64,000 nucleotides of DNA from an uncultured bacterium (GCA_963789635.1 CAWBLF010000001.1:59568-123567), one strand, 5' to 3'. Positions 19,051-61,801 are shown, counted from the stretch's first letter. Notes: generated by a model from the sequence alone, not told the origin. Made by a program: numbers and translations.

Positions 19051-19485
19051 ATGCGCTTTCAAGTCCCACAATTCATAGAGGTTGAAGATAAACTCATTGG
19101 TCCATTGACCTTCAAACAATTCGTCTACCTGGCCGGAGCGGGGGGTATAACGCTGGGGGCATTCAGTTTCTTCCCAAAAATTGTCGCCTTTTTGGTCTCC
19201 GCACCTATTGTCGTATTGGGGCTTGCTTTGGCCTTTTACAAAGTCAACAATCGACCATTTGTCATTGTGTTGGAATCTTTTGCCAGATACATTTTTAAAG
19301 AAAAACTTTATATTTGGAGAAAAGATGACAAAAAAGTGATAAAAGGGGGCGGATCCAACGCAGAAAACCCGATGGTTTATGTGCCCCGATTATCAAACAG
19401 CAAACTGAAAGATATGGCATGGAGTCTGGATGTGAGTAAAGGGGAAGCGGCTGACAACGAAGAAGGAATACCGAATAAAAAATAA
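19051..19485 (+). CDS. PrgI-family protein (small two-TM T4SS component, VirB3-like role)
   Basis: MRFQVPQFIEVEDKLIGPLTFKQFVYLAGAGGITLGAF followed by a second TM. This is the characteristic PrgI N-terminus, and the gene sits upstream of a VirB4-like ATPase. Confidence 0.75.
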   Translation: MRFQVPQFIEVEDKLIGPLTFKQFVYLAGAGGITLGAFSFFPKIVAFLVSAPIVVLGLALAFYKVNNRPFVIVLESFARYIFKEKLYIWRKDDKKVIKGGGSNAENPMVYVPRLSNSKLKDMAWSLDVSKGEAADNEEGIPNKK

Positions 19486-19491
19486 GGGGTG

Positions 19492-19593
19492 TTTCATGAA
19501 TATCTAATGCGGGCACGAAAGCGAATGGTGATTTAGACAATTATTGTTCTTGATTCGTTATTCGATTGTCCTCATTCAATATTCATTATTCAG
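19492..19593. repeat. GAATA/TATTC-rich palindromic intergenic element (copy R1)
   Basis: The right arm carries ATTCAATATTCATTATTCAG (19574-19593), 16 nt before the ATG at 19609. The left arm is a partial inverted copy (ATGAATATCTAAT). Confidence 0.5.
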
Positions 19594-19608
19594 TGTTAGA
19601 ATATATCT

Positions 19609-40640: not shown

Positions 40641-41096
40641 ATGAAGGAAACACACATGAAAACGACTGTTTCAAAAAATATTGAGGATACCCGCAAGTTG
40701 GCAGTTACTTTTTTGCAAAATCTCAAAGCATCCCAAAAAGGAGCCACCGTAGTATGCTTATCTGGAGATTTGGGTTCCGGCAAAACCGCTTTCGCAAAAG
40801 AAGTCGGTGACATTGTCGGTATTCCGCGTGATGAAATCACCAGCCCCACGTTTGTCATAATGAAAATATTTGATATACAGCACCCAGACTTTAAACGTTT
40901 GATTCACATTGATGCTTACAGGCTTCAAAAAGAAAACGAACTGATAAATCTAGGTTGGAATGAAATAATTGATGAACCGAAAAATCTTATTCTTATTGAA
41001 TGGCCGGAAATGGTGCGGGGACTTATACCAAAAGACGCGCAGACGATAAAGTTTACTTTTGTTGATGAGCAAACAAGAGAAATAAAAGTTGAATAA
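40641..41096 (+). CDS. tsaE: tRNA threonylcarbamoyladenosine biosynthesis ATPase TsaE (YjeE)
   Basis: VVCLSGDLGSGKTAFAKEV...ITSPTFVIMKIF...HIDAYRL...GWNE. The start is taken at MKETHMKTT (40641). Confidence 0.85.
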   Translation: MKETHMKTTVSKNIEDTRKLAVTFLQNLKASQKGATVVCLSGDLGSGKTAFAKEVGDIVGIPRDEITSPTFVIMKIFDIQHPDFKRLIHIDAYRLQKENELINLGWNEIIDEPKNLILIEWPEMVRGLIPKDAQTIKFTFVDEQTREIKVE

Positions 41097-41157
41097 CGAA
41101 TGTCGAATAGTGAATGAACGAAAAATCATTATTCTTAATTCCATATTCATTATTCAA
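41097..41157. repeat. GAATA/TATTC-rich palindromic intergenic element (copy R2)
   Basis: Left arm: CGAATAGTGAATGAACGAA. Right arm: ATTCCATATTCATTATTCAA (41138-41157), 21 nt before the polA ATG. Confidence 0.55.
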
Positions 41158-41177
41158 ATCCAGGTAACAAAAGTTTT

Positions 41178-44420: not shown

Positions 44421-44623
44421 CAATTAAATATGCGCCCATAGCTGTTTTGGTAGGTATACAGGGAATGTGGTAAGTTTGAAAAGTAAATAAATTATGCGCC
44501 CATAGCTGTTTTGGTAGGTATACAGGGAATGTGGTAAGTTTGAAAAGTAAATAAATTATGCGCCCATAGCTGTTTTGGTAGGTATACAGGGAATGTGGTA
44601 AGTTTGAAAAGTAAATAAATTAT
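44421..44623 (+). repeat. Tandem 64-bp repeat (3 units) made of the tRNA-Lys 5' end fused to a conserved core, directly abutting the tRNA
   Basis: Units start at 44432, 44496 and 44560 (period 64), and the true tRNA starts at 44624. The unit is GCGCCCATAGCT+GTTTTGGTAGGTATAC+agggaatgtggtaagtttgaaaagtaaataaattat. Confidence 0.9.
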
Positions 44624-44696
44624 GCGCCCATAGCTCAGCTGGTAGAGCAGATCCCTCTTAAGGATAAGGTCGTAGGTTCGATCCCTACTGGGCGCA
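44624..44696 (+). tRNA. tRNA-Lys (anticodon CTT)
   Basis: Hand-folded cloverleaf: acceptor GCGCCCA/TGGGCGC, D arm GCTC-AGCTGGTA-GAGC, anticodon loop CT-CTT-AA, T arm GTAGG-TTCGATC-CCTAC. Confidence 0.9.
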
Positions 44697-45029
44697 CAAA
44701 ATACAGAAACATCCCGCCTGCGCGGGATTTTCTGATTCTGTGCGAGGCGCAGACATGTTTTGTAGTAACAAAACAGTCGAGCCGGGGTCGCGAGATTTTT
44801 CTGCAGAAAAATACTTGTGACCACAAATACAGAAACATCCCGCCTGCGCGGGATTTTCTGATTCTGTGCGAGGCGCAGACATGTTTTGTAGTAACAAAAC
44901 AGTCGAGCCGGGTGAGAGCGAACACTCGGAGCTTTGCAAGACCTTGAGCGTTTTGTATTCAAAATGCGAAAGGTGTACAGATCCTGTAAGGATCGCGGAA
45001 ATTTTCAGTAGAAAATTATCTGTGACCAC
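44695..45029 (+). repeat. Two tandem copies of the tRNA-trailer composite element (H1-H2-H3-GTGACCAC); the second copy carries an ~85-nt insertion
   Basis: Copy 1 spans 44695-44824 and copy 2 spans 44822-45029. The first ~90 nt are identical (period 126). See findings for the hairpin structure. Confidence 0.85.
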
Positions 45030-45444: not shown

Positions 45445-45461
45445 AGGAAGATAATAACATA

Positions 45462-45548
45462 ACGAATAATGAATATCGAATAAGGAATATTGGGAGAAGC
45501 CAAATCGTTATTTGCTTTCATCCCCCGCATTCTTTATTCTTGATTCAA
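45462..45548. repeat. GAATA/TATTC-rich palindromic intergenic element (copy R3)
   Basis: ACGAATAATGAATATCGAAT (45462-45481) is the reverse complement of ATTCGATATTCATTATTCGT. A degenerate forward copy, ATTCTTTATTCTTGATTCAA, lies at 45529-45548. The element sits between divergent doxX-like and trmH-like genes. Confidence 0.55.
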
Positions 45549-48940: not shown

Positions 48941-48994
48941 GATACGAATTATAGCGAATAAGGACGAATGATACGAATGACTCCGGGCCTAATA

Positions 48995-49054
48995 CCGAAT
49001 AATGAATATCGAATGAATCCAATCGTTATTCGTAATTCCTAATTCACTATTCGT
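48995..49054. repeat. GAATA/TATTC-rich palindromic intergenic element (copy R4)
   Basis: CCGAATAATGAATATCGAAT (48995-49014) faces ATTCCTAATTCACTATTCGT (49035-49054), between divergent ruvA and rpsT. Confidence 0.6.
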
Positions 49055-49098
49055 TCTAAAACTTGCGTTTGAGCAAGGTTTCGGGTAGTATCTCCTTC

Positions 49099-49363: not shown

Positions 49364-49392
49364 AAAAAACCGGACATGCGTCCGGTTTTTTG
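49364..49392 (+). terminator. Rho-independent terminator of rpsT
   Basis: aaaaaaCCGGAcatgcgTCCGGtttttt. Confidence 0.8.
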
Positions 49393-49431
49393 TTTGCATC
49401 TGAGTAGGAGTATCTCCTTCGACTAAATTAT

Positions 49432-49572
49432 GTGGTCACGAATAATTTTTGTTTCGTCAAACAAAAATTTTCTCGACCCCGGCTCACCATAGCCAATTGC
49501 TATTGGCTATATGTTTGCGCCTAGCACAGAATCAGAAAATCCCGCGCAGGCGGGATGTTTCTGTATTCTGTG
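49432..49572 (-). repeat. tRNA-trailer composite element copy (3' of tRNA-Arg-GCG)
   Basis: On the tRNA-sense strand: H1 identical to the 44.7-kb copies, H2 = ATAGCCAAT-agca-ATTGGCTAT, GAGCCGGGGTCG, H3 = AATTTTTGTTT-gacg-AAACAAAAATT, and the end ...TTCGTGACCAC. Confidence 0.85.
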
Positions 49573-49642
49573 CTCCCAGTAGGAATCGAACCTACATTTT
49601 AACTTCCGCAAAGTTATATCCTATCCATTGAACGATGGGAGC
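49571..49642 (-). tRNA. tRNA-Arg (anticodon GCG)
   Basis: Hand fold: acceptor GCTCCCA/TGGGAGC, anticodon arm TAACT-TT-GCG-GA-AGTTA, T arm GTAGG-TTCGATT-CCTAC. The D stem relies on G-U pairs and the variable loop is 4 nt. Confidence 0.75.
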
Positions 49643-53098: not shown

Positions 53099-53185
53099 GG
53101 AGGAGTGGCAGAGTGGTCTATCGCACCGCTCTTGAAAAGCGGAAGGCTCGAAAGGGTCTCGTGAGTTCGAATCTCACCTCCTCCG
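53099..53185 (+). tRNA. tRNA-Ser (anticodon TGA)
   Basis: Acceptor GGAGGAG/CTCCTCC, anticodon arm CCGCT-CT-TGA-AA-AGCGG, a long variable arm, and T arm GTGAG-TTCGAAT-CTCAC. Confidence 0.9.
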
Positions 53186-53337
53186 CAATGATCCGCGAAA
53201 ATGTCTGGGAGACATTTAAACGGAGCATCATTTCTAGAGGAGGTGAGATTCGAAAGCCATAGGCCAGCGTAGGCTGGCGAGGCGGGGTAGCGGAAATTTT
53301 CAGCAGAAAATTATCCGTCGCCGAATCTCACCTCCTC
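53186..53337 (+). repeat. tRNA-Ser trailer element variant, ending in a 16-nt direct repeat of the tRNA 3' end
   Basis: An inverted 18-nt copy of the tRNA 3' end sits at 53237-53254. H2-like hairpin: GCCAGC-gtag-GCTGGC. Then GAGGCGGGGTAGCGG, H3 AAATTTTC-agca-GAAAATT, and the direct repeat CGAATCTCACCTCCTC (53322-53337 = 53168-53183). Confidence 0.8.
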
Positions 53338-56345: not shown

Positions 56346-56462
56346 GAAATAATATGATGATAAATAAAACTAAGGCGTCGGACGTCCAAAAAATGGAAAC
56401 CGTGCGGACAACTTCTCAACTCCAGATTCGTGTCACTCGATCTTATTCGCTATAATTAGTCC

Positions 56463-59403: not shown

Positions 59404-59406
59404 TTG

Positions 59407-59497
59407 TGGTCAGTGGTTTCGTCTACAGACGAAACATTACTTAGCTCGGCACAGAATCAGAAAATCCCGCGCAGGCGGGATGTTTCTGTATTCTGTG
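59407..59497 (-). repeat. Short tRNA-trailer element copy (3' of tRNA-Arg-TCT)
   Basis: On the tRNA-sense strand: canonical H1, CCGAGCTAAGTAAT, the hairpin GTTTCGTC-tgta-GACGAAAC, and the end CACTGACCAC. Confidence 0.8.
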
Positions 59498-59567
59498 CCC
59501 CCGGTAAGAATCGAACTTACATTGACGGCTTAGAAGTCCGCAGTTCTATCCATTGAACTACGGGGGC
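59496..59567 (-). tRNA. tRNA-Arg (anticodon TCT)
   Basis: Acceptor GCCCCCG/CGGGGGC, D arm GTTC-AATGGATA-GAAC, anticodon loop CT-TCT-AA (the stem has one G-U pair and one A/G mismatch), T arm GTAAG-TTCGATT-CTTAC. Confidence 0.8.
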
Positions 59568-59705: not shown

Positions 59706-59763
59706 ATTATCTACCTACTTATCATATCAGTGCTTTATAATACGCATAACAATCGTGCATTTG

Positions 59764-59783
59764 TACCAGTTCCGCCACGTGCC
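59764..59783 (-). repeat. Orphan 20-nt copy of the tRNA-Leu(CAG) 5' end (tRNA nt 2-21)
   Basis: TACCAGTTCCGCCACGTGCC at 59764-59783 is identical to 59685-59704 inside the tRNA. The copy lies 58 nt upstream of the tRNA in the tRNA orientation. Confidence 0.85.
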
Positions 59784-59794
59784 AAAATGTGTTT

Positions 59795-59930
59795 GTGGTC
59801 ACAGATAATTTCTTTGCCGTCGCAAAGAAATTTACGCGACCCCGCCTCGCGGTTTTGCGTACTCGCAAAACATCGCTGTGGCTCCCACAAAAGCACAAAA
59901 TCTGCCGAAGGGAGGTCTTTGTGTCTTTTG
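59795..59930 (-). repeat. tRNA-trailer composite element copy (3' of tRNA-Val)
   Basis: On the tRNA-sense strand: a divergent H1 (CACAAAAGACACAAAG...CTTTTGTG), H2 = GTTTTGCG-agta-CGCAAAAC, GAGGCGGGGTCGCG, H3 = AATTTCTTTGC-gacg-GCAAAGAAATT, and ...TCTGTGACCAC. Confidence 0.8.
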
Positions 59931-60003
59931 TGGGCGGTAGAGGATTCGAACCCCTGACATCTTCAGTGTAAATGAAGCGCTCTACCAACTGAGCTAACCG
60001 CCC
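59931..60003 (-). tRNA. tRNA-Val (anticodon TAC)
   Basis: Acceptor GGGCGGT/ACCGCCC, D arm GCTC-AGTTGGTA-GAGC, anticodon arm CTTCA-TT-TAC-AC-TGAAG, T arm AGGGG-TTCGAAT-CCTCT. Confidence 0.9.
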
Positions 60004-60251
60004 GTTACCTGCGTATACCTACCAAAACAGCTAATCGCCCGCTTACGTATACCTACCAAAACAGCTAATCGCCCGCTTACGTATACCTACCAAAACAGCT
60101 AACCAAACACAACACCTGCGTATACCTACCAAAACAGCTAACCAAACACAACACCTACGTATACCTACCAAAACAGCTAACCAAACACAACACCTGCGTA
60201 TACCTACCAAAACAGCTAACCGCCCATCACTCACGTATACCTACCAAAACA
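60004..60251 (-). repeat. Array of 7 copies of the 22-nt unit TTAGCTGTTTTGGTAGGTATAC (tRNA-sense strand) with short recurring spacers, directly 5' of tRNA-Val
   Basis: Plus-strand copies of GTATACCTACCAAAACAGCTAA lie at 60013, 60047, 60081, 60120, 60159, 60198 and 60235 (the last truncated). Spacers: tcgcccgcttac (x2), ccaaacacaacacct[g/a]c (x3) and ccgcccatcactcac. Confidence 0.9.
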
Positions 60252-60326: not shown

Positions 60327-61115
60327 ATGTCTATTTTGGATGAAATAAAAATTCTTTATGAGGATGATAATATTTTGGTGATCAATAAACCGGCTGGCCT
60401 TGCCGTGCACGCTGATGGCCGGACAAAAGAAGAAACGCTTGCCGACTGGGTGCTGGCCCATTATCCGGAGATGAAAGATGTGGGGGAGCGCGCGAGGCCG
60501 AGTAACGAATTACGAATAACGAACGATGATTCAATATCCAATTCTAAATTCGAAATGCAAAATTCTAATGTTTTGCGACCGGGAATAGTTCACCGTATTG
60601 ACCGCGACACTTCCGGAGCACTTATCATGGCCAAAAGCCAAAAAGCATTTGAATTTTTGAAGTCTCAATTTAAAAATCGATCCGTCCGCAAGGAATATCA
60701 CGCTTTTGTCTATGGCAACATTGATGAAAACTTTGGCACCATAGATAAGCCGATCGGCAGAAGCAGAAGTGATTTTCGCAAATGGTCGGCAGAAACAGGA
60801 GCCCGGGGGGAACTTCGGGATGCTCTGACTTATTTTGAAGTTATTAAGCGAGGTAAAGACGCCACTTTTATACGGGTGTTGCCCAAGACCGGTCGGACGC
60901 ACCAGATACGCGTGCATTTCAAAGCAATACATCACCCAATAGTGGCCGATGCGCTCTACGCTCCAAAAAAAGATAAACTTTTGGGATTTCAAAGAGTGGC
61001 TCTTCACGCATATTCGTTGGAGTTCAAAGACTTGTCCGGCAAAACTGTCGTAGTAACCGCTCCGTATCCTGCCGATTTTTTGCACGCAATGGAAGAATTT
61101 GATAAGAAAAGCTAA
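60327..61115 (+). CDS. RluA-family pseudouridine synthase (no S4 domain) with a ~30-aa insertion before the catalytic motif
   Basis: DDNILVINKPAGLAVH, catalytic HRIDRDTSGALIMAKS, and TGRTHQIRVH. Extra segment: ERARPSNELRITNDDSISNSKFEMQNSNVL. Confidence 0.85.
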   Translation: MSILDEIKILYEDDNILVINKPAGLAVHADGRTKEETLADWVLAHYPEMKDVGERARPSNELRITNDDSISNSKFEMQNSNVLRPGIVHRIDRDTSGALIMAKSQKAFEFLKSQFKNRSVRKEYHAFVYGNIDENFGTIDKPIGRSRSDFRKWSAETGARGELRDALTYFEVIKRGKDATFIRVLPKTGRTHQIRVHFKAIHHPIVADALYAPKKDKLLGFQRVALHAYSLEFKDLSGKTVVVTAPYPADFLHAMEEFDKKS

Positions 61116-61671: not shown

Positions 61672-61753
61672 GCCCGGGTGGAGAAATTGGTAGACTTACT
61701 ACCTTGAGGTGGTAGCGCCGAAAGGCATGCAGGTTCGAGTCCTGTCCCGGGCA
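61672..61753 (+). tRNA. tRNA-Leu (anticodon GAG)
   Basis: Acceptor GCCCGGG/CCCGGGC, anticodon arm CTACC-TT-GAG-GT-GGTAG, a long variable arm, T arm GCAGG-TTCGAGT-CCTGT. Confidence 0.85.
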
Positions 61754-61801
61754 CAGAATGCAAAAACATCCCACACAAACGGGATGTTTTTGCATTCTGT
61801 G
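61752..61801 (+). repeat. H1-type trailer hairpin variant (perfect 21-bp stem) abutting tRNA-Leu(GAG)
   Basis: CACAGAATGCAAAAACATCCC-acacaaac-GGGATGTTTTTGCATTCTGTG. It shares the CACAGAAT/ATTCTGTG base and ATCCC/GGGAT top with the canonical H1, while the middle segment differs on both arms. Confidence 0.85.

Follow-up and report, generated by a model that had tools for sequence, protein, structure and literature searches.

The DNA analyzed in the current study is a stretch of 64,000 nucleotides from an uncultured bacterium (GCA_963789635.1, CAWBLF010000001.1:59568-123567), here called the window. Behind its tRNA-Lys(CTT) gene, at 44695-45029, an earlier sequence-only reading had described a module of three hairpins; we find that the module is real and reads as described. 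Its first unit has a long hairpin after the tRNA, then another hairpin, then a G-rich stretch that is conserved and a third hairpin, and it ends in ...GTGACCAC. The family to which it belongs shows a conserved, strand-specific three-way junction, and in the following we report its fold, its relation to its target sites and what it may be.

Results

The window holds five full copies of the element, namely, two in tandem behind tRNA-Lys and one each behind tRNA-Arg(GCG), tRNA-Ser and tRNA-Val. It also holds a deleted copy behind tRNA-Arg(TCT) and a lone first hairpin behind tRNA-Leu(GAG), which is either a site without a core or a remnant (Table 1). ARAGORN places tRNA-Lys(CTT), tRNA-Arg(GCG), tRNA-Ser(TGA), tRNA-Arg(TCT) and tRNA-Val(TAC) on the strand of the listed copies and directly 5′ of them; the further copies, and the short form at tRNA-Arg(TCT), that the earlier reading had named are confirmed. 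The core, GAGSCGGGGTMGMG, has four exact matches in the window, all within modules, and five when up to 2 mismatches are allowed (0.63 expected). When copies from other genomes alone were used to build a covariance model, this model found exactly five cores in the window, with E-values of 3e-13 to 9e-8, and gave no match at the deleted tRNA-Arg(TCT) copy. The predicted folds of the window copies are far more stable than those of shuffled sequences (z-scores of -7.1 to -10.6). The tandem arrangement at tRNA-Lys also stands, in that the two units share a perfect 88-nt direct repeat (44699-44786 and 44825-44912) at a spacing of 126 nt.

A conserved three-way junction

To collect further copies, species-representative genomes were scanned with the reverse-complemented core pattern, which gave at least 120 loci (numbered L001 onward). 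All copies fold alike, in the order P1 (the first hairpin, H1), J1, P2, GG and P3. The stretches between the hairpins, which had been taken for unpaired linkers, are instead base-paired strands of P2 and P3: closing pairs GGC/GCC shut the second hairpin (H2), and GGTCGCGAG/CTTGTGACC lengthens the third (H3) into P3. P1 consists of a variable 5′ strand, X, paired with its complement, X′, and J1 is usually GAAAG or GAG. P2 is a three-pair GNC/GNC helix around an internal loop, topped by the variable H2 (form GNC-GSAG-hairpin-GAG-NC), while P3, whose top is H3, has a conserved base (GGTCGCG...YGTGACC); a bulged A and a G·U wobble, the latter conserved, are features of this helix. The Lys and Arg copies close P2 with GGC/GCC, whereas the Val and Ser copies close it with GCC/GGC, a compensatory change. 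At the three-way junction, the end of the unit 5′ of X is predicted to meet the end 3′ of GTGAC.

The covariance model, seeded with 21 gap-free copies from other genomes, yields 136 + 24 = 160 copies in the listed loci plus the window. In the 136-row alignment, 96.9% of pair cells form pairs, compared with 78.5% after shuffling and 35-48% in partner-slid controls, and changes on both sides (compensatory) are seen at 20 of 23 pairs. G·U pairs outnumber A·C pairs by 239 to 18 overall and by 43 to 6 in the 27 rows not picked by the search pattern, and at the fifth P3 pair, 21 of 24 pattern-independent rows have G·U and none has G-C. Since G·U so far exceeds A·C, the structure belongs to the strand with the sense of the upstream tRNA. 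The structured element behind tRNAs that the earlier reading had described is thus supported, with strong covariation in the tRNA-sense strand.

In Lys unit 2, about 80 additional bases (44913-44990) separate GAGCCGGG from TCGCGG. These had been described as an insertion of about 85 nt; the extra bases are indeed present, but they read as a conserved optional domain of a larger family variant. In this segment a hairpin, whose loop is GCGAACACTCGGAGC, is joined by AAG to a small helix and the motif AAGGTGTACAG..CCTGTAAGG, and a matching architecture occurs at the same position behind tRNA-Lys(CTT) of an unrelated metagenome-assembled genome (MAG; L006:5595-5720). In the copies of L039, L063, L083 and L096, the hairpin-loop motif of this domain acts as P1. 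More conserved optional modules (L039 3660-3830, L051 1881-1961 and L006 5595-5720), which include TATGAGCGGAGCGAATT...GAAGTACTCTTGTGGTGA and AAGGTGTACAG..CCTGTAAGG, suggest larger and more complex variants of the element.

A target-complementary strand and a direct repeat of the target

The earlier reading had missed the X′ strand, the direct repeat of the target after the element and the displaced native 3′ ends. The elements are arranged as X/X′/X with precise boundaries. Just 5′ of J1 lies the strand X′, which is reverse complementary to an upstream X, usually the tRNA sequence from T-loop to 3′ end, and in most tRNA-linked copies X is directly repeated after the final ...GTGAC. X commonly begins in the T-loop of a tRNA or transfer-messenger RNA (tmRNA) (TT|CGAAT...) or at the last acceptor bases (G|CACA...) and runs to the 3′ end; the repeat spans the T-loop (C|GAATCC), the acceptor 3′ strand, the discriminator and up to about 10 nt of trailer, reaching 27 nt. 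In 46 of 125 copies, 10 nt or more of the copy's own upstream region recur in its 3′ flank, compared with 2.2% in mismatched controls, and 34 of these 46 repeats have the last C of GACC as their exact starting point. Similarly, an exact upstream complement of X′ of at least 9 nt was found for 42 of 125 copies (1.1% in controls). At differences between the two X copies, X′ agrees with the upstream copy 7 times and with the downstream copy 2 times. The inverted pair X′/X is different at every locus, matching the local target, with a direct repeat of 3 to 32 nt, and the unit stands directly 5′ of genomic sequence identical to its own X. The X repeat, the X′ complementarity and the boundary statistics together mark [X ... 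X′-J1-P2-GG-P3], with P1 formed by X/X′, as a coherent unit.

Two forms of this unit occur in the window. The Lys, Arg and Val copies are of a short-X form, in which X begins at the tRNA's GCAC, P1 is H1 and the repeat behind the unit is short (CAC, CACAAAT). The Ser copy is laid out differently, with a hairpin of its own, then X′, the core and a 16-nt direct repeat of the 3′ part of the tRNA; this is the T-loop form.

Target sites

Linkage of the family to tRNA 3′ ends is predominant but not strict. Among the 160 copies, 100 have a tRNA or tmRNA on the same strand at most 330 nt upstream of them; of the others, 19 are at locus edges, 5 are just upstream of a tRNA and 36 are elsewhere. The tRNA targets cover 19 amino-acid specificities (31 anticodons in one count) and one suppressor-type tRNA. 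Copies also follow tmRNA (L026, L040, L050, L079 and L117) and a topA-like gene (L014, L019 and L043); others are antisense beside 5S rRNA with a partial 5S copy (L002 and L039) or antisense in a partial tRNA copy (L045 and L063). Some lie upstream of intact tRNAs, in partial 5′ copies of a tRNA whose break falls in the D-arm (L024, L037, L069 and L118), and one is within a tRNA-Trp gene, again in the D-arm (L086). At L008, a uvrC-like open reading frame (ORF) reads through the copy in frame with no stops, a single case with provisional boundaries. Given copies at tmRNA, topA, 5S rRNA, upstream of tRNAs, in uvrC and in tRNA-Trp, the strict preference for tRNA 3′ ends entertained earlier is not supported, and not all copies abut tRNAs. 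The single orientation relative to the tRNA, while true of the window, does not extend to the antisense copies of the family. Tandem arrays occur in the window and at L006, L007, L013, L040 and L047. Clustering of ORFs at 120 listed 8-kb loci revealed no enriched family; the most frequent was found at 9 of 120 loci, and all were housekeeping.

Replaced gene ends

Displaced, diverged native 3′ ends lie behind the unit. At the topA-like genes, the sequence runs from X through the gene end, stop, terminator, X′ and core to X again and a second gene end; X lies about 25 codons before the stop, and the second copy repeats the last ~25 codons. The two topA ends of L014 agree fully over their first 32 nt, after which dense, mostly synonymous differences set in. 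The unit appears to bring a diverged replacement for the last ~25 codons, a pattern that fits an inserted unit with a foreign gene end of its own. A staggered-cut target-site duplication is ruled out by ends that are identical for 32 nt and then densely diverged. In L009, L061, L064 and L075, the displaced 3′ copy of the tRNA is followed by a second, different (native) terminator, as would be expected if the unit and hairpin had entered between the T-loop and the native 3′ part. On paper, excising the unit from the first X copy to GTGAC would restore the host gene. Some copies are clearly old and decaying, such as that behind tRNA-Arg(TCT) in the window, and many downstream X repeats are degraded.

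Distribution and novelty

The element family is non-coding, widespread in Patescibacteria (the candidate phyla radiation, CPR) and apparently undescribed. The same core is present at at least 120 Patescibacteria genome loci, and among the matches listed, the lineages in record titles are all Patescibacteria/CPR except for one titled Gammaproteobacteria. Those named are Paceibacterota, Nomura-, Kaiser-, Adler-, Zambryski-, Yonath-, Taylor-, Lloyd-, Niyogi-, Harrison- and Moranii-bacteria and Minisyncoccia, and many further listed records are automatically labelled "Saccharibacteria." The window has no close relative among the listed loci, the best match being ~70% identical. Viral contigs scanned with the same core pattern gave no matches, which argues that the element is not a phage att region. 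Rfam 15 models, applied to the whole window at gathering thresholds and to three regions at permissive E-values, matched only tRNAs, tmRNA and rRNAs. A literature search that included the core sequence as text found no description of this element, and a paper on group I introns in Patescibacteria tRNAs (PMC13011429) makes no mention of it. The earlier suggestion of a new tRNA-linked structured RNA consequently holds as to structure, absence from Rfam and linkage of most copies to tRNA or tmRNA, but not as to a strict tRNA link.

Many MAG contigs end at or beside a copy (L003, L011, L016, L044, L060, L068 and L072), and so does L121, a Logan contig of the window's own genome. Such ends are typical of a multicopy repeat, one that breaks short-read CPR assemblies.

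Table 1. Features of the element copies in the window (positions from the first nucleotide of the window)
Feature	Position (strand)	Remarks
Five cores found by the model	44739-44824, 44958-45029, 49432-49528(-), 53249-53324, 59795-59889(-)	Covariance model search
tRNA-Lys(CTT)	44624..44696 (+)	No encoded CCA; last bases GCAC form the base of P1
Lys unit 1, P1 (= H1)	44695..44742 (+)	~21-bp hairpin; apical part terminator-like
Lys unit 1, J1 (CGAG), P2 (GGC/GCC closing internal loop, plus hairpin H2), J2 (GG)	44743..44785 (+)	
Lys unit 1, P3	44786..44822 (+)	GGTCGCGAG...CTTGTGACC, G·U wobble, bulged A; helix top is H3
Lys unit 2, P1, J1, P2	44822..44909 (+)	100% identity to unit 1 across 88 nt
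Lys unit 2, optional extra domain	44913..44990 (+)	Hairpin loop GCGAACACTCGGAGC; motif AAGGTGTACAG..CCTGTAAGG
Lys unit 2, P3	44991..45027 (+)	Covariance model
tRNA-Arg(GCG) unit	49434..49573 (-)	P1 49524-49573, J1+P2 49481-49523, P3 49434-49478
Xc1, tRNA-Ser(TGA) T-loop to acceptor 3′ strand, CGAATCTCACCTCCTC	53168..53183 (+)	
Ser copy, own hairpin between tRNA and X′	53187..53232 (+)	
Ser copy, X′ (GGAGGTGAGATTCGAA)	53239..53254 (+)	Reverse complement of Xc1 and Xc2
Ser copy, core (J1, P2, GG, P3)	53255..53322 (+)	Covariance model, 60.8 bits
Xc2, 16-nt direct repeat of tRNA-Ser 3′ part	53322..53337 (+)	Begins at last C of P3
Deleted copy behind tRNA-Arg(TCT)	59406..59498 (-)	P1 59449-59498, J1, P2 hairpin, ...CTGACCAC; most of P3 gone
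tRNA-Val(TAC) unit	59797..59933 (-)	P1 59885-59933, J1+P2 59844-59884, P3 59797-59841
P1/H1-like perfect hairpin alone behind tRNA-Leu(GAG)	61752..61801 (+)	No core

Other features of the tRNA loci

Two tRNA genes of the window have tandem arrays on their 5′ side. Directly 5′ of tRNA-Lys lie 3.3 copies of a 64-nt unit (44425-44635, plus strand), and directly 5′ of tRNA-Val lie 6.6 copies of 34/39-nt units (60007-60251, in the sense of the minus strand). The units begin with the first 7-12 nt of the respective tRNA and go on with a common GTTTTGGTAGGTATAC; the 21-mer TAGCTGTTTTGGTAGGTATAC occurs 9 times in the window and 0 times in 121 loci. These 5′ arrays mirror the 3′ duplications but contain no core. 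We considered tandem interspersed guide RNA (TIGR) arrays (PMC12045711) for them and rejected this, as the units are partial tRNA copies with identical "spacers" and lack a dual-spacer layout. tRNA-Leu(CAG) is a third window tRNA with a partial 5′ copy; a degenerate, 77%-identity copy of its first 44 nt lies 35 nt upstream of the gene (59740-59783, minus strand) and diverges in the D-loop.

Seven of the eight window tRNAs have no encoded CCA, the discriminator being followed by CA(A/G)A, and P3 of the element, ending in GACC-A-CA, resembles an acceptor end. A separate AT-rich CGAAT/GAATA repeat family is intergenic and occurs in both orientations (45459-45490, 48944-49055, 19454-19599, 41093-41158, 56426-56460 and 60502-60524). 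In L024 (from ~6370 onward, oriented coordinates), the tRNA-Asn downstream of the 5′-type copy is apparently interrupted after the anticodon, probably by a group I intron; L037 7526-7598 (oriented coordinates) is listed alongside this observation. Group I introns in Patescibacteria tRNAs have been reported (PMC13011429).

Discussion

On balance, we lean toward viewing this family as a mobile element, specific to Patescibacteria and non-autonomous, that acts in single-stranded form and whose target is chosen by guide pairing. The functional form would be a single strand with the sense of the upstream gene, folded as a three-way junction that brings its ends together, and X′ would serve as the guide that selects the insertion point. 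As the unit would begin with its own X plus whatever follows X (gene end, trailer and terminator), the interrupted gene would stay intact, and the native 3′ part would be pushed downstream, there to decay. Tandem copies could then result when further units insert at the regenerated X or when the X repeats undergo unequal crossing-over.

We slightly favor, as the active form, an RNA cotranscribed with the tRNA over a folded single-stranded DNA. This preference follows from the co-orientation with the upstream gene, the conserved G·U wobble, the bulged A and the terminator-less copies, since in L006, L010 and L012 the copy follows the tRNA with no terminator in between. Folded single-stranded DNA is nevertheless possible, given that the same strand asymmetry would be expected of it and that no reverse transcriptase would be needed. 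Cutting and joining would presumably be carried out by an enzyme or a ribozyme activity. One further possibility, which we hold to be rather doubtful, is that the junction is itself a new small ribozyme, or the substrate of some universal enzyme of RNA repair or tRNA processing (an RtcB-type ligase, RNase P or RNase Z, for example), that cuts 5′ of the X′-guide helix, excises the unit, rejoins the flanks and inserts 5′ of a matching sequence elsewhere. If so, the element would be a benign, programmable "intron" that carries a spare downstream exon.

Several points weigh against the guided mobile element. The pattern used to collect the loci fixes several bases of the core, so that sequence conservation is overstated and only 27 rows are unbiased; covariation in the columns left free by the pattern is not inflated. 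The tRNA-Arg(GCG) copy of the window has an ortholog in L078, with a near-identical P1 and a diverged core, and every tRNA-Lys(CTT) copy is of the same form. Some copies thus appear to be old and vertically inherited, which fits a host function too. A return from RNA to DNA would need a reverse transcriptase, an enzyme usually carried by group II introns, and these were undetected in 95 complete genomes of Patescibacteria (PMC13011429). Copies antisense to 5S rRNA or tRNA fit cotranscription poorly. No partner enzyme was found by ORF clustering of the 120 listed loci. Finally, in the copies with a local P1 hairpin at L024, L069 and L008, X′ has no complementarity to the 3′ flank, so guide pairing does not account for every insertion.

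The host probably uses at least P1. In the window its apical part is terminator-like (ATCCCGC-CTGC-GCGGGAT TTTCTGATT), and it is the only part of the element there with the G+C-rich stem and T run of an intrinsic terminator; P2 and P3 are not terminators, and P1 of other genomes often lacks a T run (L010 and L012). Between the window and the orthologous L078 copy, P1 is far better conserved than the core. Just past the tRNA-Arg(GCG) element, at 49385-49415, lies a canonical bidirectional terminator (AAAAAACCGGAC-gcat-GTCCGGTTTTTTG), which shows that this genome does use ordinary intrinsic terminators.

A rival view is that the whole element is a cis-acting host RNA module in the 3′ trailer of stable-RNA genes, in which P1 terminates transcription and the P2/P3 junction is a processing, stability or protein-binding element (for example, in the 3′ maturation of CCA-less tRNAs), with vertical inheritance and with local duplications as a by-product. 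The same-orientation copies behind tRNA and tmRNA (100 of 160), the terminator-like apical H1, the deep conservation of fold and core sequence over many candidate phyla, the orthologous copies kept at tRNA-Arg(GCG) and tRNA-Lys(CTT) and the lack of CCA in window tRNAs all speak for such a module. We still regard it as unlikely, because it leaves unexplained the exact target repeats that begin at the last base of the element, the displaced and diverged second topA ends and the copies in the uvrC ORF, in tRNA-Trp and antisense to 5S rRNA or tRNA. Decayed and deleted copies, such as that at tRNA-Arg(TCT), also tell against it, as does the fact that half of the window tRNAs are without a full copy (three have none and one has only the deleted copy). 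The trailer-derived small RNA or processing module of the sequence-only reading falls short in a similar way, in that X′, the X repeat and the displaced 3′ ends show more than a trailer-derived small RNA. It is possible that a tRNA-like minihelix mimic (P3 plus ACA, or X′/X as an acceptor-T helix) acts as a putative processing signal.

Repeats running from T-loop to 3′ end and replacement by a diverged 3′ end are classical marks of integrases (T-loop-class integrases, and e14 and phage 21 in icd). As both marks are seen here, the former at tRNA and tmRNA genes and the latter at a protein gene, the unit might be a miniature, double-stranded, att-only satellite mobilized in trans by a tyrosine integrase of a phage or island, with the repeats as attL and attR, crossover in the T-loop and the core as the protein-binding arm region. 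This we find distinctly improbable for a unit of merely ~100-250 bp, with no integrase in the 120 listed 8-kb loci and no copy in viral contigs. Moreover, one core serves more than 30 targets, each with a matching X′ that an integrase does not need, and P2 and P3 covary, vary in length and favor G·U far over A·C, which would be unexpected of double-stranded protein-binding sites. Least probable of all, in our view, is an ordinary miniature inverted-repeat transposable element (MITE), repetitive extragenic palindrome or bacterial interspersed mosaic element (REP/BIME), or Rickettsia palindromic element (RPE)-type repeat, spread by a transposase that the hairpins serve only for recognition. The family is multicopy, intergenic and hairpin-rich, MAG contigs often break there, and its one apparently in-frame ORF copy recalls those known for Rickettsia palindromic elements. 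However, it lacks constant terminal inverted repeats, a REP head motif and (in the 120 listed loci) a linked transposase or REP-associated tyrosine transposase (RAYT) gene; its flanking repeat is 3 to 32 nt, target derived and on one side only; its orientation is bound to the target strand; and it is conserved over many candidate phyla with compensatory changes.

Whereas REP/BIME units are imperfect palindromes of 20-40 nt with a conserved GTAG or CGTC head, the present units, at 85-210 nt and with three helices, have no GTAG/CGTC head at the helix feet, and ORF clustering of the listed loci found no RAYT, although whole genomes were not searched; the BIME/REP-like mosaic proposed at the outset therefore survives as to repeat-like or mobile-like behavior but not as to head motif, alternating orientation or a nearby RAYT. 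As for MITEs, there is neither a constant terminal inverted repeat nor a target-site duplication of fixed length. Direct repeats of the tRNA or tmRNA 3′ part do flank the insert, as in tRNA-targeting integrative elements, and no integrase was found in the 100-250-nt inserts or nearby in the listed loci. A group I intron is not indicated, with no RF00028 match at E ≤ 10 or E ≤ 1, a core of two helices and an end of ...GTGAC(C). Models for hepatitis delta virus (HDV)-like/theta, hammerhead, twister, hatchet and pistol ribozymes likewise gave no match at E ≤ 10 or E ≤ 1. Hammerhead, k-turn and box C/D readings of J1 (UGAUGAG...GAAAG) were rejected on account of junction order and strand lengths.

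With moderate confidence only, because its mechanism is one that we infer, we place the element outside the known kinds of system, several of which it nonetheless resembles. It shares with tyrosine-integrase islands and with e14 and phage 21 the T-loop-to-3′-end repeats, the replaced 3′ end and tandem accretion at the same site, but it is 100-250 nt long, has no integrase and no cargo, uses one scaffold for many targets and covaries on one strand. As in introns of groups I and II (internal guide sequence and EBS-IBS [exon- and intron-binding site] pairing, respectively), a scaffold stands beside a variable segment complementary to the "exon," and the targets are tRNA, tmRNA, rRNA and occasionally protein-coding genes. 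Group I introns are common in Patescibacteria (PMC13011429). Unlike either intron type, the element has a core of ~70-100 nt, no catalytic core, no terminal G and no GUGYG...AY ends, and it carries a copy of the downstream exon rather than interrupting the exon. Like REP/BIME, RPE and Correia/BOX repeats, it is small, non-coding, multicopy, hairpin forming, modular and sometimes a terminator, and RPEs are occasionally found in frame inside ORFs, as one copy here may be. It differs from these in having a target-complementary strand, phylum-wide conservation with compensatory changes and strand asymmetry, and no constant inverted ends, fixed duplication or REP head.

Theta (minimal HDV-like) ribozymes lie 3′ of phage tRNAs (PMC10879173) and, like the present element, are small, structured, RNA-like and directly 3′ of tRNAs, with the first helix at the tRNA end. 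The element is instead a three-way junction rather than a nested double pseudoknot, has no Rfam HDV-family match and resides in bacterial chromosomes, with none in the scanned viral contigs; any cleavage is putative. With integron attC sites, the CTX phage attP and IS200/IS605 ends, it shares a structure conserved over sequence, with bulges or mismatches that mark the strand. Element-internal bases pair with the target as in IS608, although the guide is 8-19 nt here compared with 4 nt there, and its tandem arrays are cassette-like, as with attC, although without an R/L box consensus. No IntI, Xer-type or TnpA partner was identified by ORF clustering in the 120 listed loci.

Even on a conservative reading, this would be among the most widespread structured non-coding elements of Patescibacteria missing from Rfam. 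It accounts for partial duplications of tRNAs, tmRNA and gene ends and for frequent contig breaks in CPR MAGs, and the annotation of tRNA and tmRNA should allow for it. If the guide reading is true, it would be a mobile element of ~100 nt whose target is set by base pairing, which has no protein gene of its own and which has spread over a whole superphylum of bacteria with reduced genomes. It would then be a new kind among the few mobile systems guided by nucleic acids, beside group II introns, IS200/IS605, the IS110 bridge RNA and CRISPR-associated transposons, and could be a very compact programmable scaffold.

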